A stretch of 64,000 nt of DNA from a virus (lineage: Duplodnaviria; Caudoviricetes). This document shows positions 11,306 to 59,086 of this stretch, one piece after another. Position numbers and translations under genes: made by a program. The stretch covers positions 1 through 64,000 of IMG/VR virus record IMGVR_UViG_2654587976_000001; one strand, given 5' to 3'. The notes beneath the pieces were generated by a model, which did no database searches, was not told where the DNA came from, and saw only the letters and a list, made by a program, of their open reading frames with translations. Within the stretch, counting starts at the first letter, position 1; each line of letters starts with the position of its first letter.

Positions 11306-11332
11306 AAAAAGAGCCAGCATATTAACTGGCTC
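11306..11332 (-). terminator. Terminator-like hairpin after cwlP
   Basis: GAGCCAG...CTGGCTC stem followed by TTTTT on the minus strand. Confidence 0.65.
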
Positions 11333-13814
11333 ATGAGTTGTTGAAATTTATACCTTTGTTTTTAAGACCATTTGCAAATTTATTGAATACAAAATCAGCT
11401 GTTTTCTGAGGATTCCCTGATTCGTTAATGGTGAATTCAACTTTAAAATCATTGTTGTTTACAGTGCCATTTACTGACTTAGCTGCGTCTGGTGGGGAAG
11501 AGAGGTTTTGAATAGTCGGGATCAAACTATTAGAAAGACTCGATAGATTAATATTCGGAATTATTGATGGGATAGTTGTGATTCCTTTGTTAATCAAGGC
11601 TGCTAATTTTCCACCTTGCCCCCATTTAGGTGTCTCTTCACTTGGAGTATTGTTCTCACGTACAGCTTTTACTGTATCTAAGATGTTTGCAGTATCAGTT
11701 TTATTAAGGATAAGTTCCTTATCATGAAGGAAAGCGAGTTTACCTGTGCCTAGTCCTGTACCTGTATATCCACCCGATGCAAAAGAGGATACCTTTTTCC
11801 CAGTTTTATTACCTTTGGTCACAGTATTCAGGGCATTGGAGGCTTCTTTAAGCTTATCGATAAGGTTATTAGAGATACTTTTACCAATGGACTCCATATT
11901 GCTGTTAATGAATTTAGAGAATTCATTCAGTTGCTTAGCAATATCAGTAATCTTCCCATCCATTAGCTTTTTCTCAAGTTCCTTAAATCCACGCTCATCA
12001 TTGACGAGATCATCATATTTCTTGTTAATTGAATCTTCGTCTTTTTGAAGCTGATCTTGTAACGATTCTTTTCGTTTACTGTTTTCACGATCTTTAAGAA
12101 ACTCATCTAATGCTTCTTGCTGTTCTTGAAGTTGCTTTTCTAAGTCTTTAACCTGTGATTTTGCTTCATCTGAGTCATCGAGAGACAGTTTATTTAGCTT
12201 ATCTTTGGTTTCCTGAATAGCCTGATTCTTTTCTTTGAGCTCTTTTTGGTATTTAGCTTCATCATCAGTTTTATCAATCTCATCAATCAAGTCTTGTGTA
12301 GCTTTTTGGTGCGCTTTTAATTCGATATCACGCATCTTTTCGTACATCTCTTTGTAGATAGAGACAACTTCATCAGCAAGAGATTTGTACACATCTTTGA
12401 TTGATTTCTTTGTGTTGTAAAGCTCCAGGTTGTAATCCTTCTGCTTGTCTTTCCAGTTCTCGATTTCTTCAGTAATTTGTTTCTGAATATCCGGGAACCC
12501 TTTAGCAGCTTTCTTTTGTGCTTCCAACTGTTTGATATACTTCTTCGCTTCAGTCTGTTGCTGCTGAATAAGCTTAATCTGTTGGCTATAATATTTAACC
12601 TTGTCTTTATCTTCCTCGGTCATGGATATTTTGTTTCCAACATCTTTAAGCTTGGATTCAGTTTTCTTGGTTGATTTCTCTATGCCGTTAAGCGTTTCAT
12701 CAACTTTGGATTGGATGAGCTGTCCCTGAAGTTCTCTTACTTCTTCTTGGAAATTGATGAGATCAATCTTAGCTTGTTTTAATTCCTCAGCAAGCTGTGC
12801 TCTTTGAGCGGCATTCAGAGTTTTGTTTGTTTTGATTTCTTTTTCAATAAAAGAAACCTTCTGGCTCTGAATCTTTTGCTGTTCAGTTAAAGCTTTTTTC
12901 TGATCGTTTGTATACTTGCGGAATTCTTTACTGTCGCTCAGGTAATGACTAGCGAGCGCTTTGTCTTTAGCGATTCTTACGTCAAAATCGCCAATACGCT
13001 TGTCATATTCATCGAGTTTCGATTGAACGATCTCATATCTGAGCTCTTGTATCTGATCGTTTACTGAATCAATGTCACCTTGGAGAGAGAGGAGGTCTGA
13101 TTTAGCTTGTGCGATTGCTTGCTGTCGTTCTGCTTCAGCTTGAGATGCATCTGAAATAGATGTACCGACACCTTTTAAATACTTCTCAGGGTCAATCGTC
13201 TTTCCGTTTTCCTCAATTTGAAGATGAAGGTGATTTCCTGTTGAATTACCCGTACTGCCAACTTTACCGATGGTCTGACCAGCTTTAACAGTTTGACCGG
13301 CTTTAACAGAAGGGGTATCAAGCATATGCATATACTTAGCAACTTTTCCATCATCCTGCTGAATGACAACCCAGTTACCGGCAGTCTTGCTATAACCAGC
13401 AATTTGAACTTTTCCACTCTGAACCGATTTAATTGCGGTTCCAGCTTTTGCGGCAAAGTCTGTCCCTTTATGTGGAGTTGATCGGTAAGCGCCATCTTTC
13501 GCATTATATTTAGAACTTATTTTAAACGCACTGTTCTTCGTGTAGTAGCTTGCAATGGAGGAATTAGCAGAAGTCATTGACTTAGTGTAATTTGACATGA
13601 TCTTCTGAACATAATTCTGCGTTTCCTTGAAAGGAGGGATGCCACCATATTTGATTACATTCCCAGGCCCTGCGTTATAAGCAGCAAGTGCTTTCTCAAC
13701 ATTGCCACCAAATTTACTTAGTTGTTGGGCTAAATATTTCGTACCACCCATAATGCTCTGATAAGGATCATAAACATTGTTTACACCTAAACTCTTAGCT
13801 GTGGATGGCATCAA
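11331..13814 (-). CDS. cwlP: cwlP/yomI exon 2: rest of the SLT lytic transglycosylase, M23 peptidase and C-terminal coiled coil
   Basis: Begins TTG ATG CCA (LMP) right after the intron 3' end; AAYNAGPG, ETQNYV, HKGTD, YMHM and HLH motifs. Confidence 0.92.
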   Translation of the reverse strand: MMPSTAKSLGVNNVYDPYQSIMGGTKYLAQQLSKFGGNVEKALAAYNAGPGNVIKYGGIPPFKETQNYVQKIMSNYTKSMTSANSSIASYYTKNSAFKISSKYNAKDGAYRSTPHKGTDFAAKAGTAIKSVQSGKVQIAGYSKTAGNWVVIQQDDGKVAKYMHMLDTPSVKAGQTVKAGQTIGKVGSTGNSTGNHLHLQIEENGKTIDPEKYLKGVGTSISDASQAEAERQQAIAQAKSDLLSLQGDIDSVNDQIQELRYEIVQSKLDEYDKRIGDFDVRIAKDKALASHYLSDSKEFRKYTNDQKKALTEQQKIQSQKVSFIEKEIKTNKTLNAAQRAQLAEELKQAKIDLINFQEEVRELQGQLIQSKVDETLNGIEKSTKKTESKLKDVGNKISMTEEDKDKVKYYSQQIKLIQQQQTEAKKYIKQLEAQKKAAKGFPDIQKQITEEIENWKDKQKDYNLELYNTKKSIKDVYKSLADEVVSIYKEMYEKMRDIELKAHQKATQDLIDEIDKTDDEAKYQKELKEKNQAIQETKDKLNKLSLDDSDEAKSQVKDLEKQLQEQQEALDEFLKDRENSKRKESLQDQLQKDEDSINKKYDDLVNDERGFKELEKKLMDGKITDIAKQLNEFSKFINSNMESIGKSISNNLIDKLKEASNALNTVTKGNKTGKKVSSFASGGYTGTGLGTGKLAFLHDKELILNKTDTANILDTVKAVRENNTPSEETPKWGQGGKLAALINKGITTIPSIIPNINLSSLSNSLIPTIQNLSSPPDAAKSVNGTVNNNDFKVEFTINESGNPQKTADFVFNKFANGLKNKGINFNNS

Positions 13815-16299
13815 GTAGAGTAAGAACCCGGCGCCTTGGCATATCTCTATGCTAGGTTTCCAAGAACTCCTCTCCGAACCGTACGTACACCTCTCGATGT
13901 ATACGGCTCTCCACTTATCAATCTAGCTTTCCGTTGTGCAATTTGAGATGGCAGTCTTTACAAAGCGCCATGGTTTTACGTTTTCTTTCAACCATGCGCT
14001 TTTCCCATCTTTTCTTGCCTTTTAGGTCTTTTAGCTTCCTAACGTGATGAATTTCAAGTGGCACGTTTGTACTATTGCACCATTCGCATTTTTCCGCTAA
14101 AAGTCTATCAATCAAACTCGTTCTATTATAAATAATTCCTCGTCCCATCGGGACGGCGTCTATAGAGATATCTTTGGAAATTTCGGTTTGCTTTCTAAAC
14201 CCATTATTGTAAAAGTAGGAAATTCTTTGCCCATTCTTCGTCTGATACCTTACGGCAAATTTGCCATTCACACTATACTTACTGATGATTTTGCTAACGC
14301 TTGATTTGTACTTACAAGCAAATGTTTTGTACATGCTGTATTCCATAATGTAACTAAAGCGATGAAGCTTGTATGCATTATTTGCTAAGCGATAATAGTT
14401 GTATAACCCTCTGATTTCAGCATTGTATATCGCAAGGATCTCTAAGTCATCATTTTGAAGAAGATGGGATCTGTGCATTGATTTCCATTTCTGATTCTTC
14501 GAATCTATTCTTATCGCTTTGTATTCAATAAGCTTGTTTCTCCACGCTTCATGAGGGACAAGAAGTTCACAAACCATTGATCTGGTTCGTTGCTTGTGTC
14601 CACTACTGGTGCGTTTTGAAGTTGAAGGATCATGACTGACCTTTATGTCATATCCCAAGAATCTTGCTCTGTTGGATGAGTGGGTGATTAGTGTTTTCTC
14701 TTGAGATAGCTCGACTTTGAGCTCTTGGATAAGATATTCTGTGATGTCTTTTTTAATTCTTTCACAGTCCTCTTTGCTACCAATAACACCGATAATGAAA
14801 TCATCAGCGTATCGCACGTATTGCAACCTTTTAAAACCATCGTCCATAGGGTCTTTATATGGTAATTCCATCATTTCATTTTTAAGTTGTTTAAGGTGAA
14901 CTATTGCATCTTCTTTTTCTTGTTCGTTCATGTCGTCCCAATTGTTTTTGTATTTATTTCTCGCTCGGAAGAGCCGCGTTTCTTTTGTGCGGTACTCTGT
15001 CGATCTCTTGCGAGAATTACCTTTGTCGAAAGATGTTTTATATTTCTCGATGAACTGATCCAGTTCATTCAAGTAGATATTCGACAGTATGGGGCTTATG
15101 ATCCCACCTTGAGGTGTTCCACTGTAAGTTTTACGATACACCCAATCTTCAAGAAAGCCTGCTCTGAGGAATTTCCATATGAGACTAATAAAGTTTTCGT
15201 CATCAATTTTCCTTCTGAGAATGTTTATAAGGATATGATGATCTATGTTGTCAAAGAAACCTTTTATATCGCCTTCTATGAACCACTTAGTACCAGTGAA
15301 TTTATTTTTTGCCTGGGTTAGAGCAGTATGACAACTTCGATTAGGCCGAAACCCGTGGGACACTGTGGAAAACGTTTTGTCATAGATGCTTGAAAGAAGC
15401 ATTCTCACTACTTCCTGTAGCAACTTATCTTCGAATGATGGTATACCCAATGGACGTTTTTTCCCGTTCTTCTTTGGGATATATGTTCGTTTCGATGGTT
15501 TTGGTTGATAGCTGTGATCTTTAAGACTGTTAATCAAATTCTCAATGCGTTCTAGGCTCATACCGTCGATAGTTTGACCGTCGGCACCTTCTGTCATATT
15601 TCCTTCTTTAGAATAGATGTTTGAATAGGCTAAGAGATAAAATTCCGTGTTGTACAAATTTCTATATAGACGTTTAAATTTATAATCCGAACGAGTTGTT
15701 TGTCTCGCTAGACTGTCTAACACGACTTGTGGACTTCTCATAGAGCCTCACGCTCCTTTCCATTTTTGTGTAAGACATGATAAGCTGTTTCCCTTCGCCA
15801 TGTGGTAGGCTTTCCCTACCTCGGACTACTACGGAAACTCCGTTACCTTATTGGATATTCAGGCACTAAATGCCATAGCTATTAAGCGTTCCAACTTAGG
15901 TAATCACCGTTTAGCACATGTAAGAACAAGCGCGTTGTAATTTCGGATGCGACGTTCGTCCTTTTCTTCTTATTGAAGACGGTCAACCTTTAGATCACTC
16001 CCGATTGACATGCAATTAATCAATAGGGTATTGGTTGTATAACGTTTATAAATACCTTCCGTTATAGATGGCCCTTTAATCACCTCGGACTATCGTTTAA
16101 GCAGTTTAGCTTTCACCCTTGTTTACAACTTTTCATCTTGCCATTCAGTCGTACCGTGGTATTTCGATAACTTATGGCTTTCTCAACATGCTACACTCCC
16201 CGTTCAGTTTCCTTCCCGGATAAGTTGAGTGATGACAGGAGACGTGATCGTACCTGTTTCTTGCTAAAGAAAATTTCTTACATGACCTTACGGTCGCAC
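13815..16299 (-). mobile_element. Group II intron (2485 nt, Ll.LtrB-like) in cwlP
   Basis: 5' GTGCG at 16299, 3' ...CTCTAC at 13815, domain V GAGCCGTATACATCGAGAGGTGTACGTACGGTTC; candidate EBS1 TTGCAT (16010-16015) in a stem-loop pairs with exon end ATGCAG; removal restores GLMQLMP in frame. Confidence 0.95.
13918..15741 (-). CDS. ltrA: Intron-encoded reverse transcriptase/maturase with HNH endonuclease
   Basis: RPLGIP, GTPQGGIISP, YVRYADD, domain X, C-terminal CEWC...EIHH...LCKDCH. Confidence 0.95.
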   Translation of the reverse strand: MRSPQVVLDSLARQTTRSDYKFKRLYRNLYNTEFYLLAYSNIYSKEGNMTEGADGQTIDGMSLERIENLINSLKDHSYQPKPSKRTYIPKKNGKKRPLGIPSFEDKLLQEVVRMLLSSIYDKTFSTVSHGFRPNRSCHTALTQAKNKFTGTKWFIEGDIKGFFDNIDHHILINILRRKIDDENFISLIWKFLRAGFLEDWVYRKTYSGTPQGGIISPILSNIYLNELDQFIEKYKTSFDKGNSRKRSTEYRTKETRLFRARNKYKNNWDDMNEQEKEDAIVHLKQLKNEMMELPYKDPMDDGFKRLQYVRYADDFIIGVIGSKEDCERIKKDITEYLIQELKVELSQEKTLITHSSNRARFLGYDIKVSHDPSTSKRTSSGHKQRTRSMVCELLVPHEAWRNKLIEYKAIRIDSKNQKWKSMHRSHLLQNDDLEILAIYNAEIRGLYNYYRLANNAYKLHRFSYIMEYSMYKTFACKYKSSVSKIISKYSVNGKFAVRYQTKNGQRISYFYNNGFRKQTEISKDISIDAVPMGRGIIYNRTSLIDRLLAEKCEWCNSTNVPLEIHHVRKLKDLKGKKRWEKRMVERKRKTMALCKDCHLKLHNGKLD

Positions 16300-19200
16300 C
16301 TGCATTAATCCGGCTGCGCCTGCTCCAGAACGAGCTCTTGCATTGAATCCTGATTCTTGTTGGATTACAGCTGCAATTAGAGCTGGATCAACACCGTATT
16401 TGCTTGCGGCAGAATTAATGTAGCTGGAGTATTTACCGGAGTAAGACCCGCCACCAGAAGAATAAGAACCACCAGAAGATGAACCAGAGGAAAGGGAAGA
16501 GGTTACGATACCGTATTGTGCAATGTTCCCTGACTTAATTTGATCCTTGAGGAGTTTGGCTTGCTCCTGCATAAGCTTTTTCTTTTGTTGAAGAGCTTTA
16601 ATTTCTTTCTGCAGGGCATTTCGATAACTTTGAGAATACTTTGGATAGTCGTTTACCTGCTTATTGTACTTTTCAACTTCAGCGGTGACTTTCTCCAGAG
16701 CTTCCTTGTATTTATCAGCCACGTACATAGATGTTTTCATTTCCTCAGAGGCTTTATCACTTGAAGAAGAAAGGTCGTCAAGAGATGTTCCTGTTTCGGA
16801 TAGGGAAGTTGAAGCCAAATCGGCTAGTTTATCAAGCTCTTTAAGCTGATCAGTGATATCAGTGACCTGGTTTAAATCATCCTGTGTTTTGGGTAGGAAC
16901 TGCAGCGCACCACTGTTCCCTTTTTTTAGTTCGTCGTATATCTTTTTCTTGTTGTCTTCAAGCTCAGACTTCATTTTATAAGCGTCTTGAACAGTCTTGA
17001 TAGCCTTGACTTCAGACTTATACATATTAATCTTTTTATTTAATGCATTAGCCTGATTAATTAGATCTTGTCTTACAGATTGTTGCATATCATTATAAGC
17101 TTTGAGTTTTGTGTCCCGAAGCTTAACAACTGCATTTCTGTTGATTTTTACAACACCATTTTCAACTGAAATTGCATCAGCAAGATCATGTTCTTTCTGA
17201 ATAAGCTTCATGGCTTCTGTTGCAGATATGCTTTTACCTTCAGACATTTTTTCAAGGAGGTTGTTTAAAGGGGAAATGCTGTCAGACATAGTATCATAAG
17301 CTTCATTTTGAATAGCAGATATAGCAGCATCATTTTGCTTCGATTCAACTAATTCATCGATGATTCCTTTAATTGCTTCAAAATCACCTTTAGCTTCTTT
17401 GAGCTTGTCAGATAAATTCCCGACTTGCTCACCTAATGCATCTACACCTTCACCATTTTCATCCCAGGTTACTTTTGCAGTTTGTGCAGAATCGTTTGTA
17501 GAGTCAATGGCAGTTTTAAGATCATCATAAGATAAAGCCAAACCATTAGCTTTATCTTTACCACTCATATATTGATTAACAAGCTGTTCTAAGCTTTTAG
17601 AGGCGGAATCAAAATTATTTTTATTCCCCGATTGCAGAGCTTTTTGGATATTATCCATGTATTTCGAAACATTTATTGAAAATGACTCAAGTTCATCTGC
17701 ATTCATTTTGCTGAAGTCAATTTTATCAAATGCGTTAGATATTTCCCTTGAAAGATTCGGATTTATCTTTATTGAGTTAAAGGCATCAATTGTCTGTTGT
17801 ACTTGCTCTCTAATTTTAGCCTGTGAGCTGGATAGCTCTTGTTCAGTACGTAGTGCATCTTGTTCAGCTTTAATACCTTGATTTTTTTTGTCATTTTCAG
17901 AAGAGAAAATATCCCAACTCTTGCCGTTTTTATAATAATCGGCAACCTGCTTGTACTGTTTAATCTTATCATTGAGTTTATCAATGTCTTTTAAGCTTTC
18001 CTTAAAGTTACTATTGGCACCTGTTTGAATGTCTTTTTTGTTTAAATTACTAAGGTCTTCAGTGTACTTTATAGCATCCTTAAGTGCTTGGTTTTTCTTT
18101 AATATTGCTTGCCCTTGAGAATCATAACCAGCGATCAAATTCGGGAATGTTTGTGCTAATTGTTGTGTTACTTGCAGATATTCTTGCTCTTGGTCAGCCG
18201 ATAAAGCTCCGCCATCTTTAGCCTTTTGTAATTCTTTGTATTGACTAATCAGTTTGTCTGTTTCATCTTTATTCGTTGTAATTGCTTCAATGCTAGTAGT
18301 TTTAGCTTGCTCAAAGTCTTCTCTAGCTTGTTTTAATTCAGAATAAGAGGAAATGAGTTTCTCGATAACGACGCCAAGTCCAACCATAGCTGCCATTGGA
18401 AGAAAACTGCCCGCTAAAAACGCGCTTGCAGAGACTGCTACTTTCTTTAGATTGCTCATCGCAACGCTTGAAGCATTAACCACTCGAGTCCAAACTGCAG
18501 TTTTAGCTGAAGCTGTGGTTGCGCCAATCCCAACAGCATTAAAGTTTAAGACAAGATTTTTAAGGGTTGATATTGCAGACATTCCAGTTGAGATGGTAGC
18601 TGTACGAAGAGAGGTGTTGAAAAGCAGGATTGCAGTTGTCGCAGAACCAAAAACTTGAGGGAGGAGCCCGACTGTTTTAGTAATTTGAGCACTTGTTTGC
18701 ATTAATCCTTTAAGTGCTTCTGCAAAAACAACAATGCTATTAGAGATGAAGGCTTCACTTGAGGCAACCGACATTTCTGTAAATGCATTTGACAGCCTGT
18801 TTAATCTTGCCTGTAAACTGTCAGCGTATTTCTGCTGTTCACTCCAAGCGCTTCCTGCGGAATTAGCTGCAGTGGTCGCTGCATTTTGTGATATGGAAAA
18901 ATTATTCATCAAGGCATTAAATCTAGAAAGCTGATAAATGCCCGCTACACCTATTGAGGTATTTTGTTTTTGAGCATCGCTGAGGGTATTCCATTTGTCT
19001 GCTAACTCATTAATTAAATCAGTAGCAGATTTCGCCTCACCACTGGCAGTTTTCACAGAAATACCAATCTGTTCTAAGGCTTTAATTGAGCTATCATTAT
19101 TTCCAATACGTGCGAAAATGGTTTTAAGTGAGTTACCAACAATGTTTCCTGATTCACGGGTTGTGCTTGCAATTGCTGTAGTATAACCAATCAGATCGTT

Positions 19201-20700
19201 TAATTCAACACCAAAAGTGGAAGCGGTGCTTCCTGCTTTTCGAATCGAATTCGCTAGGTCAAGAGTAGTTACAGCATAGTTGTTATCGACTTCATTAAGC
19301 TTATCTGCAATTGAAATAGAATCATTCGCAGCAATATTGAAGTTTAACATTGCGGCAGTTAAAGTGTTAACTGTGTCGTCAGGAGTCAAGTCAGAGACGT
19401 TTTGAAGTACCTGAGCGGTTTTTGTTAGAGTGGACAGTTCACTTTCATCGAACCCCATACGCCCGAAATCGCCAGTCATTTGAAGTATGTCAGTGATCTT
19501 GTTTGAAAGAGTGTCTCCTAGGTTTATTGATTCCTCGAGTAGCTCATTGTACTTATAATCAGGCTCATTCATTACACGTCTGATGTTTGTCATTAGAGTA
19601 TCAATTTCAACAGCCTGGGAGACCATTTCCTTGAGTCCAGATATAGCGCCATAGAATAAAGAACCGGAGATCAAATATGTCGACATACTTTTGAAAGCTT
19701 GAGTTAACTCCGTGCCAAAAGAGGAGGCTTGACTAGACGCTGTTTGAGCATTTGAAGCCAACTCCCTAAATTGCATGTTCAAGCTTTGCATTTGAGATCT
19801 GATATTACTACCGCCGGCACTTACATTAAGACTATTTACTGCATTTAAATAATCTTGAGCAGCTTGTCTATTGCCGGCACCCATTGTATCGCCGTAACGT
19901 GTATTAAGGTTTTGTACGTTTACCTGCGCTTGGCGTTGATACAACTCAATAGTTTTTCTGAGTTCATTATTTTTCGCCACAGCAGCAGACTTATCATCGA
20001 GCATCTTAATTCTGTTTTGTAATGCTTCAATTTGTTGTGCTGTTTGAGCAGTATTTAGTTTCCGTCCAAGGGAAGAGAGAGTGGTGTCAGTTACAATCCC
20101 TTGTTGTCTAAGTTTTTCTAAATCCAGCTTTAATTGTTCAATTGCTTTTCGTTGTTGATCATAGTTTGTTGTAACTTTCGACGATGTAGCGTTTGTTTTT
20201 GGGTCTGTTGTATAGGAAATATCGTCAAAGCCGTTGCGGTTCTTTTGAGTAACCCTCGTTGTTTGTCCTTGAGCATTCTTTTGTTCTGTTTTCTTCTGTA
20301 CCTGACCAAGTTTTTCAGTCGCTTGGGCAAGCCTGTTAACTTCTTGTGTTTGTTCACGTAATGATTGATTACGATTGTCTATGGTCTTTGTTTCACGCTG
20401 AATTATTTCGCCATTTTTCTTATACTGCTGCGTTAGTTTTTCAACAGTACCATCGGCATTTCTGGTAATCGTTGTAGTTTCTTTAACTGTTTGATTGAAG
20501 GATTTGAGATGTTTTTGGTAAGAGTCAACCGCAGAGGAGAAGTCGTTGAGAGTCTTTAAAGCAGAGGCATCAATATTGGTCTTTAAATTAAGGGAATTTA
20601 GCTTTTTCTCTAAAGATTTAATTTGCTGATTTAACTGTTCGACAGTTTTTGAAGAAGTATCAGCTTTGGGTGTGAGTATGATCTTTAAATCTTGACTCAA
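16300..20700 (-). CDS. cwlP: cwlP/yomI exon 1: tape-measure domain and N-terminal half of the SLT domain (probable TTG start at 20700; spliced product ~2294 aa)
   Basis: TP901-type tape-measure core (TRESGNIVGNSLKTIFARI); IQQESGFN...GAAGLMQ ends at the intron start. Confidence 0.92.
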
Positions 20701-20763
20701 ATATAGGTCACATCCTTTCGAATAGGGGAGAGTGATTTTTAGGGCATATAAAAAAGCCACTCG

Positions 20764-44706: not shown

Positions 44707-45354
44707 TTACACCTTTTGATTTCTAAATCGGATGACTCGTTCCTTTGTTTTTTGTTTATTCCTCTTGACTGTACATTTCCCACAGAAAAGCTTCTTACTT
44801 GTTTTAGCCCTAAATAGCGTTTTACAATCACTACAAACTCTTAGTGTTTTCAGGTTGTGTGTTAGGTTGTTCAATATACAAGCACCGAAACATTCCCACA
44901 AAGTCGATTTGAATTTACTCTTCTTTTTATACAGATACTTAATCAGAACATCAGCAACATATTGCTCGTCTTCATGAATCTTCAGCAATCTGTCTTTAAT
45001 GACCTTATAAACATAAAGTTTTTGTCCAGGCTTAATGTCTTCATCATTCATGAGCCATTTCTTGTTTTGGTCTAATCGTTTGTACTCACTAATAATTGCC
45101 TCGTCCAACTTAATATCCTTGTTCTTGAGCAGGAAGCGATAATCGAACTTCCCTGCAACAGCTGCAAAATTAATTCGGTCTGAGGGGATAATGGAGTCTA
45201 ACTTATTTACTGTGCTTTCATTAATTAACTCAACGCTATGTTCTTCTTTATCCTTTGCATTGATGAAGAAGTGGGGTACTTTATTTTTTATGTAATCTTT
45301 GATTTTTTCATCGACATGATCAGGTCGGGTAGGCATGAATAAGGTTTTTGCGAA
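44707..45354 (-). CDS. yonO: yonO exon 2 (C-terminal 215 aa, with Zn-finger-like Cys motif)
   Basis: Begins TTC GCA AAA (FAK) after the intron's terminal G, in frame with the tracked ORF. Confidence 0.88.
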
Positions 45355-45685
45355 CTTTGATACCCTCGGTTTCCCGATATTTTATTAGGGAATAGACCAT
45401 ATCATCATCTGTGCTAGACAGATGGTCAGCGCTTCATAATAAGGAATTTCACCTTATTATTACTCCATAAAGGATGGTCGTTGCACCTTCATTTACAAGT
45501 GCTTCCCAGCATGATGTAAACGCTTGGCACAGGGTTATCGTATCGATAAGGACTTAGAATTCCCCTGTTAGCACACTCATTGACGATCATTTCCTATCGC
45601 TGCTTTTCGCTGAATGCACACCCTAGATTTCTAGGTTCACTGACTTTTCATCCGCATATCGCTATGCGACGCGACTAAAAATTTA
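45355..45685 (-). mobile_element. Group I self-splicing intron (331 nt, no homing endonuclease) in yonO
   Basis: Exon ends in U with P1 CGAU|UAA...UUAGUCG (U-G wobble at the splice site); P7 elements CAACGACCAT and GATATGGTC; ends in G; removal gives in-frame ENNFTID|FAKTLF. Confidence 0.92.
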
Positions 45686-47560
45686 ATCGATAGTAAAGTT
45701 ATTTTCCATACATAACCATTTGATCACGTCCATATTTATGTTGTCACTGTTCCATATCTTAGTGATGTTGTTGCTGTACTCCCCGATATTGATCCCATAA
45801 GCAAGAGTTAGTGCTTCATAGATGTTTTTGCTATTAATCTCTTGTTTCTGGGCTACAGACATTTCATAATACAACGGAACGATGTTTTCCATATTACGCT
45901 TGGCAATATTGACGATTAACTCATCAGGAATAATTAAGGCCTTATCCCCGTCATTGTCGAACTGCAGCAGTTTAGATATTGGATCATGAATGCTGGTGTA
46001 AACACCTGGGGTAATGAACCACTTTTCATATTCCTCATCTTTTTTGTTCCACCTAACACCATGCTCTCTGAATAGGTGAGGGGAGCGGAGGATATCAATA
46101 TACCCTTCATCATATAAAGAACAATGGACATCACTTCCTGAAAGCAGTCCTTTTGGATTCTGGATGTTCAGAAATAATTTTTCGCAGAAAGCATACAGGT
46201 CAGGGCATAAGTATGTATAACGAGCACCATCAACAAGCAATTTTCCTGATTTGGCATCTTTAATCATGCTTTTCTTTTTATTTTTAATAATTTCTTTCGT
46301 GTGATCATCGTTAAGAAGTTCTGGATATAGAAGCAAAGCGTTCTGAAGAGCTGTTCGATGTTTCTTTTTCTCCGTAGCTCCAAGAACTCTTAACATGGTT
46401 TCTTTGTCAGTTCCCAATGTGGTAATCTCTTTTACAGTCTTAGAGCTCATTTGAATTAATTCTTCATCGGAGATATCTGTAAGTGTCTGGAGCATTTGAT
46501 AAGTGAGTTTACCTTCAATAGAAGGGTCTTCTTCGTTGAGTTTTGCCCCTAAGCATCCATATTTTTTATAATTGCCTTGATATTCTTCCCACGATGAATA
46601 ATACTTCCACATTTTAAACTGGCTTTTAGTGAAGATAATTTGAACATCATCTTTCACTACGTCCCATTCCTTGCCGTATATATCAGTTACTTTAAAAGCT
46701 TTGTTTTCCTCAGCAAATTTACGAAAATCAAAAGGGACTAATAAACCCTTTACCCATGGGAGTCTTACCATGAAGCTTTTACGACTTAGAGTGGGGAGTA
46801 TCATTCCGCAGCCATCTGTATGTTCAATGGGAATGTTCATTGTTTTTCGTGTGATATCGTAGGTATCTCGATCAATGTAGTCAACGAGACTCGACACATC
46901 AGTTTCTAAGTCGTTGACAACAATGGCTTTATCAATATCAATCTCCCAAGGGCTACTGGCACTGTTAGAAAGGGCCATATAGCTATTCCATTTGTTAATG
47001 CTACTACCACCAAGGGAGTTGATCTTTTCAATACTTAAGCCGCATGTCAAAGCATCCTGATACTTATCGTAGGTGCTTTTTTTAATGAAACATGACTTCT
47101 TTGTACGAATTTGACCGGCGCTGCTCGTGAAATAAATGTATTTTTCATTGTTATGTAAAAATCCCTGATCAATAATGTCCTTCAATACTTCAAAATGGTA
47201 AGTCTGGACAACCATGATTTCCTCTGAAAGGGTGTTTTCTTTAATCCCTAATGTTCGGGTCAACACTGAATCAAATAAAGAAATCACTTTATTATCCCTT
47301 AAGCTGTCAGTTCGAAGTGTTCTTATGTTATTATGTTCTTCGAATGCGGAATAGAGGCATTCTTTAAGGTATGTAATTCTTTGTGATATGTATTTCTTAT
47401 GTTTATTATTTACATTGTCTAATGTCTTAAGATAATCTCTGTATCTATAAGACTTCAAAATCTTATTATGTAATGAATTTTCTTTGTCATTATAAAATGC
47501 TGATGTGTCCACGCTGTATATGTGAACTTGCTTAGACAATCCGTCTTTTTTTCTTTTCAA
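45686..47560 (-). CDS. yonO: yonO exon 1: single-subunit double-psi-barrel phage RNA polymerase (spliced product 840 aa)
   Basis: Catalytic QFDNDGD, LRSPHL and HTDGCG motifs; adjacent to yonN. Confidence 0.92.
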
Positions 47561-50698: not shown

Positions 50699-50878
50699 GT
50701 GCTTGAGAAAGTGGGTATAACAATTGCTTTCCTTATTCCTATCACGGTTTTAATCATCAACTGTTTAACAATAGCTGAGAAGATTCAAAACCTGATGAAG
50801 AATAAAGAAAGCAAAAAGAAAAAGCGTACACGCAAGCGCCTCCGTAGCAAGAGACAACGCAAACGTATACGCAGATAA
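50699..50878 (+). CDS. yonT: Type I toxin YonT (59 aa, GTG start)
   Basis: AAAGGAGG RBS; LEKVGI...TM helix plus very basic tail (KKKKRTRKRLRSKRQRKRIRR) like SPbeta YonT; TGCTATAAT extended -10 upstream. Confidence 0.88.
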   Translation: MLEKVGITIAFLIPITVLIINCLTIAEKIQNLMKNKESKKKKRTRKRLRSKRQRKRIRR

Positions 50879-50912
50879 CACGCTAAAGGGGAATTAATCC
50901 CCTTTAGTCACT
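50810..50912 (-). ncRNA. SR6-like antisense antitoxin RNA (ends approximate)
   Basis: Minus-strand TTTACA-N16-TATAAT promoter with TG extension at 50919-50946; hairpin 50883-50907; overlaps the yonT 3' end as known for SR6. Confidence 0.6.
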
Positions 50913-57498: not shown

Positions 57499-57713
57499 AT
57501 CATTCCGAGAGAGTCGTTATGAATGTTGAAAAAAACGAGAACGGATTTGTAGTTGTAAAAGAGCATTATACAGAAGAGGGTATCCGCGAAAACCAATGCT
57601 TTTGTTTTGATAGAGATAAGGCTAGTGCAGAGGCTGAACGTATTCAAAATGAAATTGATCCAGAACATAACGAATGGAAAGTGACTTATGAACCTGTAGA
57701 GATTATTAGATAG
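57495..57713 (+). CDS. Small hypothetical protein
   Basis: AAGGAG RBS; stop lies at the start of the 58-bp repeat. Confidence 0.6.
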   Translation: MNHSERVVMNVEKNENGFVVVKEHYTEEGIRENQCFCFDRDKASAEAERIQNEIDPEHNEWKVTYEPVEIIR

Positions 57714-57809
57714 TCGTTTGGGTGACTATAAACAGACATTAAGCCCAGAGCGTCCTTCCTGCTGCGGGAAAAGAAAACAACTCATAAAACATAAGGAAGT
57801 GTTATTCAG

Positions 57810-58065: not shown

Positions 58066-58305
58066 TTGAGTTATGAACGTCCAGGCTTTACTTTTGCGGA
58101 AGCAGTAGTATTGTCCCTGAAGATCATGTTAACGATTGCTATTGTAATTGGTGATGCATTCTTTATACGTTGGCTTTACACAAATGATTACGTTATTTCG
58201 ACTTATGTGACTGGTGGATTTTCATTTTTTGTTTTTTGGTTTTTATGTTTTGGACTCCCGAATGAGAGATTAAATGTCGCCTGGGCGACTATAAACAGAC
58301 ATTAA
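58066..58305 (+). CDS. Small two-TM protein
   Basis: GGGGGA RBS; hydrophobic; 3' end runs into the last repeat copy. Confidence 0.6.
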   Translation: MSYERPGFTFAEAVVLSLKIMLTIAIVIGDAFFIRWLYTNDYVISTYVTGGFSFFVFWFLCFGLPNERLNVAWATINRH

Positions 58306-58339
58306 GCCCAGAGCGTCCTTCCTGCTACGGGAAGGGGTT

Positions 58340-59086
58340 GTGAAAAATATAAGGAGAGAATGGGGGCGTTTTAAAAAAATGGCAGCAGTACTAAAAATGA
58401 AAGAATCTGATTTGTTCGAACCTGTTAAGTCGTTTCTAATAAAAAATGGTTGCTCGAAAGTTTATGGGGAAGTTCTCGGATGTGATGTATTTGGGATAAA
58501 TGGAGTGTGTGATATTGTCGTAGAATTGAAGACAACGTTGAGTTTTAAACTGATTGATCAAGCTTTAGACAGATTGAACCATGGTCATTACGTTTACATT
58601 GCAGTACCTAAGAGAAAAGGGCATATACCTAGATGTGTGAAATACCTACTTGAAGAAAAAAATATAGGTTTACTTGAAGTAGGTAAAGACAAATATTCAG
58701 ACGACATTATAGTACATGTTTCAATTCCTGCAAAATACAATCGCCTTGCTACTGAATGGAAGAAGAGAGGATTAAAGTCAACCAGAGACTATATAAAGGA
58801 CTACCACGAAACACAAATGGGGGGTGTAAAGGGGGGAGAGAGTGTTACTGAGTATTCTAACATGATTGATAATATTAAAGATTTCTTGTACCGCAGAATG
58901 CGTGGAAAATGGGCTACAATTGAAGAAATATTGAACCATTGTGAAACGTATTATTCAAATCCAAAACCAAGTCTAAACGCAACTTTGCAAGCGAAATGGA
59001 ATAGTGATTGGTGTGAATCTAAAGTGGTTAATCGAAAAAGATATTTCAGAATTCGAAAGGAACAATATTATGGGGAAGGGATCTAA
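58340..59086 (+). CDS. DUF2161-like PD-(D/E)XK protein (true start probably 58379 or 58397)
   Basis: MKESDLFEPVK.FL...GEV..CDV...IVVELK..L...LI.QA.DR....VYIAVP. Confidence 0.7.
   Translation: MKNIRREWGRFKKMAAVLKMKESDLFEPVKSFLIKNGCSKVYGEVLGCDVFGINGVCDIVVELKTTLSFKLIDQALDRLNHGHYVYIAVPKRKGHIPRCVKYLLEEKNIGLLEVGKDKYSDDIIVHVSIPAKYNRLATEWKKRGLKSTRDYIKDYHETQMGGVKGGESVTEYSNMIDNIKDFLYRRMRGKWATIEEILNHCETYYSNPKPSLNATLQAKWNSDWCESKVVNRKRYFRIRKEQYYGEGI

Follow-up and report, generated by a model that had tools for sequence, protein, structure and literature searches.

A group I intron interrupting yonO, the RNA polymerase gene of an SPbeta-like Bacillus prophage, and its relatives

Phage group I introns and the interrupted yonO gene

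The td intron of phage T4 is a group I intron that carries the open reading frame (ORF) of the GIY-YIG endonuclease I-TevI in a peripheral loop, P6a, and another phage group I intron lies in the DNA polymerase gene (gene 31) of SPO1. Closer to the present case, Lazarevic et al. reportedly described, in 1998 and 2001, group I introns in the SPbeta genes bnrdE and bnrdF. The available text of a review on SPbeta likewise gives group I introns for these two genes (PMC8270828), and group I introns in multisubunit RNA polymerase genes are reported for the jumbo phages PhiPA3 and 201phi2-1 (gp273/274 in the latter) in the accessible parts of PMC11878797 and PMC2919709. The DNA analysed here, referred to as the window, comprises 64 kb from the start of the IMG/VR provirus IMGVR_UViG_2654587976_000001, an SPbeta-like Bacillus prophage with a total length of 128,870 bp. 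Its yonO gene, encoding the phage RNA polymerase YonO, is interrupted on the minus strand by nucleotides (nt) 45355-45685, which are with high probability a functional group I intron of the IA type, devoid of an ORF and belonging to a mobile selfish lineage. This reading is carried by the anatomy of the element, the covariation of its helices, an exact in-frame junction, which is found ligated in RNA, and spread by horizontal transfer. The yonO intron is an ordinary type of mobile element that is mechanistically unsurprising and leaves the knowledge of how group I introns work unchanged; its host gene seems to be unreported in this role, and its lineage is widespread in SPbeta-like phages and unannotated there.

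The yonO intron shared some properties with each of the described systems and differed in others. The bnrdE/bnrdF introns are likewise group I introns of SPbeta-type prophages, but their host is a ribonucleotide reductase gene and the copy in this provirus has an HNH endonuclease. Outside the window, at 114218-114496 on the plus strand of the same provirus (G000:C1, locus L007), a sub-threshold group I match of 31.7 bits was observed between the halves of the gene for the ribonucleotide reductase small subunit, with an HNH ORF adjoining; it corresponds to the known bnrdF-type intron of SPbeta. As far as the available texts on PhiPA3 and 201phi2-1 go, the introns of these phages are, like that of yonO, mobile introns in a two-barrel RNA polymerase gene of a phage, whereas they reside in genes for beta/beta'-like multisubunit enzymes of Pseudomonas phages and are associated with HNH, yonO encoding a single chain in Bacillus prophages. 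In a blastn search with the window intron, 294 phage records were matched. The SPO1 intron showed 73-75% identity to intron nt 44-126 (P3, two extra hairpins and P4), relatives of the SPO1 intron occur in phages of Bacillus, Staphylococcus, Listeria, Enterococcus and Clostridium, and the 3' core of the window intron resembled other phage introns. SPO1-type introns differ, however, in their host genes (DNA polymerase, terminase and others), and the likeness in sequence is partial.

On the minus strand, the ORF list contained a TAA-terminated ORF of 625 amino acids (aa) at 45683..47560 and a second one of 209 aa at 44707..45336. Exon 1 of yonO was placed at 45686..47560 (-), with 625 codons from a TTG start, based on the ORF list, identity to SPBc2 YonO, Pfam and PHROG; the intron at 45355..45685 (-), with 331 nt, UAA first and G last, based on Rfam family RF00028, covariation and an RNA-seq contig; and exon 2 at 44707..45354 (-), with 215 codons plus stop, which is contiguous with exon 1 in the intron-less phage SPBc2. 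Excision of 45355-45685 (331 nt) preserved the frame and yielded a product of 840 aa; both the coordinates and the frame were as claimed in a preliminary description made from the sequence alone. No ORF of at least 40 aa was present inside 45355-45685 on either strand, in agreement with the claim made there that the intron encodes no homing endonuclease. Around the joint, the predicted protein (...NNFTID|FAKTLF...) was the same, residue for residue, as the 839-aa YonO of SPBc2, in which the DNA reads uninterrupted as ACTATCGAT|TTTGCAAAAACC, while the window reads ACTATCGAT - 331 nt - TTCGCAAAAACC. Protein identity to SPBc2 YonO was 86% for exon 1 and 77% for exon 2. Exon 1 matched the Pfam family RdRP (PF05183, E 6.8e-8) and possessed DNDGD, the catalytic (DxDGD metal-binding) motif, at residues 535-539; in PHROG 8308, a profile of 847 positions, exon 1 covered 2-644 and exon 2 covered 645-847, the two being consecutive halves of one profile. 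By homology to SPbeta YonO and by the DxDGD motif, the joined protein is a single-chain two-barrel RNA polymerase of the YonO type, and the neighbouring small ORFs and the downstream HU-like gene follow the yonP-yonO-yonN order of phage SPBc2.

The insertion point lies between yonO codons 625 and 626, and without splicing the reading frame ends there, UAA being the first codon of the intron; this stop and the terminal G of the intron, at 45355, had both been pointed out in the preliminary description. Conservation at the joint was scored on 106 intron-less loci, representing 74 distinct junction peptides. Among these, N(-4) was conserved in 100%, I(-1) in 99% and D(0) in 100% on the exon 1 side, and A(+2) in 96%, K(+3) in 100%, T(+4) in 96% and L(+5) in 96% past the joint. 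The intron thus sits in a near-invariant motif, NNFxID|[YF]AKTL, as is expected of homing targets. According to the preliminary description, the intron would be refuted by intron-less homologues that do not read ...TIDFAK... at this point; they read ...TID[F/Y]AK..., with D and K invariant in 74/74 peptides, and the intron is therefore not refuted.

Splicing and structure of the intron

The stretch, or part of it, was contained in 20 of 24 listed public sequencing runs, four of which were compared at the junction, namely X1, X8 and X9 (RNA) and X4 (probably DNA). In X1, an RNA-seq run, a 59-nt contig with a depth of 90.3 and 0 mismatches joined 45353 to 45685 and skipped 331 nt; the joint has a 1-nt ambiguity and is equivalent to the predicted 45355-45685. 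In the same run, the exon-2 contig ended at 45354, the exon-1 contig started at 45685, and an intron-bearing contig extended across 45325-45714. In the assembly graph of X1 a bubble thus coincides exactly with the predicted splice sites, and both of its arms join the window's own exons. Precise exon ligation is therefore seen in RNA, in one contig, with the 331-nt difference that the preliminary description had expected of an RT-PCR product. In X4, which came from a separate study and had 9 differences, the intron lay within a single contig and no joint was present. Contig depths of 90 for the junction, 184 for the intron and 125-143 for the exons in X1 are unusable as a splicing ratio or efficiency.

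According to the proposed mechanism, the yonO transcript would fold into the P1-P9 core; external guanosine would attack after U45686, the U of the U.G pair in P1; the freed 3'-OH of exon 1 would attack after the terminal G (45355); and the ligated exons would form the mRNA for the 840-aa full-length YonO. An in-frame stop early in a phage intron is the usual device for keeping ribosomes out of the ribozyme, and the UAA at the first intron codon may likewise halt ribosomes at the 5' splice site and keep them off the ribozyme.

A full-length match to RF00028 (Intron_gpI, model positions 1-253) was obtained with 38.3 bits and E 4.1e-8 in an 801-nt search, and with 37.3 bits and E 3.1e-9 in the whole provirus. 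Consensus columns were occupied in the Rfam alignment by P1, including its splice-site U.G, by P2, P3, P6, P8 and P9 and by the P7 strands, and P4/P5 were wrongly placed on a 63-nt insertion between P3 and P4. The misalignment and the low score are attributable to two extra hairpins between P3 and UAA-P4, since the same-site intron of locus L154, which is without them, scored 67.4 bits, above the cut-off of 50; the relatives in L133 and L025 scored 43.4 and 23.1 bits, respectively.

A structure model consisting of P1, P2, P3, the two extra hairpins, P4, P5, P6/6a/6b, P7, P7.1, P7.2, P8 and P9/9a was evaluated on a MAFFT alignment of 12 distinct same-site introns, whose host YonO exon 1 proteins are 52-99% identical to that of the window. 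Paired cells amounted to 94.0% of 953 in the 12 introns, versus 35-43% when the partners were slid by 1-3 columns; pairs changed on both sides numbered 44/89, versus 6-20 for the slid partners; and the covariation score was 0.345, versus 0.04-0.075. None of 500 shuffles matched any of the three observed covariation values. The unconstrained minimum free energy (MFE) fold, at -98.2 kcal/mol (z = -4.68, 0/100 shuffles as good), found P3, P4, P6a, P7.1, P7.2 and P8 by itself. Judged by covariation against these controls, the element possesses the conserved core P3-P4-P5-P6-P7-P8-P9 with the P3/P7 pseudoknot.

All helices are given on the minus strand. P1 (45672..45689), supported by the Rfam alignment and the model, has 7 bp, formed by exon CGAU and intron UAA with intron 8-14. 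As stated in the preliminary description, a U.G wobble marks the 5' splice site, U45686 pairing with G45675 (intron position 11); it was kept in 10 of the 12 introns, the two exceptions being L154 and L155, whose splice site is read 4 nt upstream. The P2 hairpin (45653..45668; 6 bp, GCGA loop) had 4/6 pairs changed on both sides and 100% of its cells paired, and P3, whose 5' strand (45638..45644) pairs with 45425-45431, had 5/7 such changes, 100% paired cells and a place in the MFE fold. The two extra hairpins fill the P3-P4 interval (45573..45635; intron 51-64 and 69-113), with both-side changes of 2/5, 7/7 and 4/5. They are called P3.1 and P3.2 here, names of this analysis' own, as no published name for them was found in the available text of PMC11878797. 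They are missing from the 228-nt introns of L154 and L155, and it is in their stretch that blastn matches the intron region of the SPO1 DNA polymerase gene. P4 (CAGGG/CCCUG) encloses a short P5/P5a hairpin (45530..45567) and was invariant or varied between G-C and G-U only, and P6/P6a/P6b (45485..45528) followed, with 6/8 pairs of P6a changed on both sides.

In the 3' half, the 5' strand of P7 (45475..45479) pairs with 45395-45399, forms the pseudoknot with P3 and was 100% paired; 1/5 pairs changed on both sides, C-G being replaced by U-A in 5/12 sequences. The P7 pair GACCAU/AUGGUC recognized in the preliminary description corresponds to intron 207-212 and 286-291 and to the P7 columns of the Rfam consensus. 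The P7.1 and P7.2 hairpins lie between P7 and P3' (45436..45474; P7.2 with 6/9 pairs changed on both sides), followed by the P8 hairpin (45407..45423; 4/6 pairs) and by P9 with an inner hairpin, P9a (45363..45390; 3/4 pairs of P9a), which has a GAAA loop in 12/12 introns. P4 and the outer P9 pairs were invariant and hence uninformative on covariation. In P5, the internal loop (UCUAAG...UACGA) resembles an 11-nt tetraloop receptor, and the invariant GAAA of P9a resembles the matching tetraloop. An omega G could be read at the end of each of the 23 distinct same-site inserts, for 20 of them as extracted and for L153, L154 and L155 after a boundary shift by eye. P7.1/P7.2 between P7 and P3' are a mark of subgroup IA in the available text of a review on bacterial group I introns (PMC3984707). 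By these two hairpins the intron belongs to the phage-type subgroup IA as a whole (IA1, IA2 or IA3).

Several observations weigh against a functional, self-splicing intron. The search with Rfam group I models that had been proposed as a check returned a full-length match, but its 38.3 bits (37.3 in the provirus) stayed below the gathering cut-off of 50 bits; with Rfam gathering thresholds no group I match was obtained in the whole window, and in an E-value run over eight loci (57.8 kb) RF00028 was absent even for the identical intron of L008. The miss in the 57.8-kb run is read as insensitivity of the filter on long input, not as absence. The percentage of paired cells is inflated, the rows of the alignment being related and the model being drawn from the window sequence. 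A convincing P10 pairing with exon 2 could not be drawn. The P5 hairpin of the window copy is very short (2+2 bp) and its receptor-like motif is 1 base off the consensus of the relatives, and folding could be less robust than in ORF-bearing copies. As to the RNA data, the ligated form is represented by one short contig in 1/3 RNA runs; X9 yielded an intron-bearing contig only and X8 no contig over 45296-45407, and these two runs speak neither way on splicing. Self-catalysis with guanosine, unaided by proteins, is an inference.

Distribution, mobility and alternative explanations

In the phage collection, 24 records span yonO, and 16/24 of these SPbeta-like records had an intron at the same site. 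Nine of them, namely the phi3T lines, SPR and SPbetaL3, carried a 400-nt intron, and seven (Goe11, Goe14, SPbetaL4-L7 and BUCT083) a version of ~1290 nt. No intron was present in the other eight (SPBc2 x2, Goe12, Goe13, SPbetaL1, L2, L8 and one hybrid), as judged from match spans and, for SPBc2, by a direct check. With one genome per species, 80 YonO loci included 4 with an insert at the site, 72 without, 1 ambiguous and 3 with no detectable exon 2; in IMG/VR, 68 scored loci included 21 with an insert at the site and 47 without, one more locus having no exon-2 match. Altogether, 25/149 YonO loci had an insert at the residue-625 site, and the survey of yonO alleles suggested in the preliminary description has thus recovered inserts at the same site in many loci and phage records. 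Two other records contained the identical 331-nt intron, and a third contained a form of 330 nt. The intron had been termed minimal, a relative word, as same-site relatives are as short as 228 nt (L154, L155). In locus L008, from a contig titled Streptomyces sp., yonO was 97% identical to that of the window and its 331-nt intron was the same; as the prophage is of the Bacillus type, the assembly looks mislabelled or contaminated.

In the phage records, the yonO intron locus is annotated as two or three separate coding sequences ('hypothetical protein', yonO_1/yonO_2), with no intron. YonO of phi3T, SPR, Goe11, Goe14 and many prophages is consequently filed as two or three unrelated proteins or as yonO_1/yonO_2. 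PHROG 37506, a profile 214 positions long, is built on the exon-2 fragment alone, exon 2 matching its positions 1-206; the split annotation has therefore reached family databases. Since these phages serve as models in work on arbitrium signalling and prophage recombination, it is of practical use to know that their late RNA polymerase comes from a spliced mRNA. No paper describing an intron in yonO was found among openly accessible main texts. The yonO intron is unmentioned in the available texts of the SPbeta review PMC8270828, a preprint on SPbeta relatives (10.1101/2021.11.22.469490), the YonO paper PMC5467207, Ruprich-Robert and Thuriaux 2010 (PMC2919709) and the bacterial group I intron review PMC3984707. 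The earlier statement that no report of an intron in yonO was known agrees with the papers searched, but the same intron is present, unannotated, in many public phage records including that of phi3T.

The introns of phi3T, SPR and SPbetaL3 and those of the Goe11 type shared with the window intron the insertion point ATCGAT|TTCGCA, identical intron ends and a core of 97-99% identity. In the long versions, an ORF situated inside the P5a loop encodes a protein of 300 aa with GIY-YIG and NUMOD3 domains, which matched the catalytic domain of I-TevI (PDB 1mk0) with E 2e-8. These versions thereby resemble the T4 td intron, which differs, however, in its host gene and in the loop that holds the ORF; the window copy differs from td also in having no ORF. 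In DNA comparisons of the window with phi3T, Goe11, SPbetaL5 and others, exon 1 was 80-82%, exon 2 74-80% and the ribozyme core 97-99% identical, which points to horizontal spread of the core between alleles. Alleles whose exon 1 was 94-99% identical to that of the window differed in their inserts, which measured 0, 330/331 or 1291 nt. The intron is thus polymorphic, present or absent at a single conserved site, and is better conserved than the exons. The selfish lineage would move among SPbeta-like phages by homing, probably through the GIY-YIG enzyme; the window copy, being without an endonuclease, does not home by itself, though it disrupts its own target site. A co-conversion tract attributable to homing was not found, identity being 25-30/30 per bin up to ~300 nt upstream and ~150 nt downstream; near-site exon identity is high with and without the intron alike, so that co-conversion is not demonstrable from it. 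Exon 2 was mosaic relative to exon 1 when compared across L088-L141, L088 having 99.7% identity in exon 1 versus 86.9% in exon 2, and L111 80.5% versus 91.7%; this mosaicism suggests recombination at or near the intron site. Closely related, genetically tractable B. subtilis phages include alleles of four kinds, with an ORF-bearing intron, an ORF-remnant, an ORF-less intron or no intron, and this set permits tests of homing, of exclusion between co-resident prophages, and of shielding by an ORF-less intron against a relative's endonuclease.

The ORF-less forms appear to differ in origin. The 400-nt form of phi3T retains the last codons of the endonuclease ORF and is thus a deletion derivative, whereas no remnant of the ORF was present in the window. 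Outside intron 124-151, the window intron was identical to that of Goe11 at 298/303 positions, versus 18/28 inside this segment. The P5 segment of the window was 21/24 identical to the ORF-less intron of the distant homologue L133, which elsewhere agreed at 228/289 positions. Simple deletion of the ORF was considered as the origin of the window's form and was rejected on the P5 segment identities (18/28 versus 298/303), being kept for phi3T. The ORF-less P5 hairpin of the window may be either the state before invasion by the endonuclease or a swapped cassette.

The preliminary description went on to propose a gate, in which guanosine-dependent self-splicing controls the change to late expression. 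Splicing would then be conditional, responding to nucleotides or GTP, Mg2+, translation, or a phage or host factor, and would time the appearance of full-length YonO and late transcription; if true, the intron would be an RNA-level timer delaying late-gene commitment, and the lysis schedule of intron carriers would differ from that of the intron-less SPbeta. Translation does end at UAA after residue 625 until splicing, which makes splicing formally required for full-length YonO in this phage, and X1 contains the intron-bearing form at a depth of 184 next to the spliced form at a depth of 90, but such contig depths are not readable as splicing efficiency. Introns as condition sensors are discussed in the accessible part of PMC11878797; guanosine, however, is used by every group I intron, and a cofactor common to all of them is not a specific signal. 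The SPbeta late operon needs YonO, but the late-gene role was shown in SPBc2 (both in the available text of PMC5467207), and as SPBc2 is intron-less, the intron is not needed for the late switch. It is dispensable also in Goe12, Goe13 and the 47/68 IMG/VR loci without insert, including alleles 95-98% identical in exon 1, and near-identity of the core across divergent hosts is what a selfish invader shows, rather than a co-evolved regulator. With no sign of conditional splicing, and with the intron present or absent among near-identical alleles, the gating proposal was not borne out and is regarded as improbable.

Splicing might also be unnecessary, the 625-aa and 209-aa products being translated separately and assembling into a two-piece enzyme, as the yonO_1/yonO_2 annotation implies. 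An ATG (45336) is indeed present 18 nt into exon 2, public records give separate coding sequences, and PHROG 37506 consists of the C-terminal piece alone. This ATG, however, is without a preceding purine run resembling a Shine-Dalgarno sequence, and Met is not conserved there, M being found in 14/74 and K in 50/74 distinct intron-less junction peptides. As the interruption is a covariation-supported ribozyme and the ligated junction is present in RNA, separate translation is scarcely credible. The same RNA evidence bears on the notion that the intron is a decaying remnant that splices poorly and leaves yonO effectively a pseudogene. The missing endonuclease ORF, the shortened P5a and the Rfam score under the cut-off would fit such decay, but the core helices are all intact and paired in the window sequence, both exons are open and conserved, the identical 331-nt form recurs in two other records and the 330-nt form in a third, and the spliced junction is seen; decay is accordingly given almost no credence, and a functional, mobile group I intron is preferred to all three accounts.

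Other inserts in yonO homologues and further elements of the window

Inserts were also observed at two other places in YonO homologues. Those around residue 535, present in 9/149 loci (L025, L034, L072, L074, L083, L152, L153, L154 and L155), lie inside or just before the DxDGD catalytic codons, apparently at two positions 5 nt apart; those around residue 190 were present in 3/149 loci (L083, L154 and L155). Their hosts are YonO homologues in other Firmicutes and in phage contigs. All of them contain the group I core motif GATAT[AG]GTC, and several showed blastn similarity to the window intron. RF00028 matched the residue-190 insert of L154; in the RF00028 search, no match was obtained in the genome of L074, the matches in the genome of L083 lay outside the yonO locus, and the residue-535 insert of L154 was left uncovered. 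The putative group I nature of these inserts rests on the blastn likeness, the GATAT[AG]GTC motif and the Rfam match of the L154 residue-190 insert. In L154 and L155, this one gene is interrupted three times, by small inserts of 250, 242 and 228 nt. The IMG/VR record of L154 (G004, 51,806 bp) is unusually intron-dense, as RF00028 matched at eight places within its 52 kb and scored above the cut-off at seven. At the residue-625 site, the introns of L153, L154 and L155 are apparently positioned 4 nt upstream of the window's site, after GUGAU in the Ile codon, which would make this a second sub-site in the same motif. The genes of YonO-type polymerases extend the small set of phage genes that host group I introns, and with inserts at three conserved places in YonO, one of them within DxDGD, homing elements are again seen to seek invariant coding sequence.

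Elsewhere in the window, a group II intron at 13815-16287 (-) splits a tape-measure/tail lysin gene within its SLT domain, the flanking ORFs being 16288-20760 and 11331-13814. Domains V/VI matched RF00029 at 13815-13911 with 61.9 bits, and a reverse transcriptase (RT)/maturase/HNH ORF was located at 13918-15741; the upstream flanking ORF ends with SLT positions 2-44, and the downstream one begins with SLT 44-116, followed by Peptidase_M23. Two Pistol ribozyme matches, ~500 nt apart and above the Rfam cut-offs, were located at 57712-57766 (+) and 58275-58342 (+), with 41.3 and 66 bits, respectively, and an SR6 antitoxin RNA was matched at 50813-50910 (-) with 86.2 bits, also above its Rfam cut-off.

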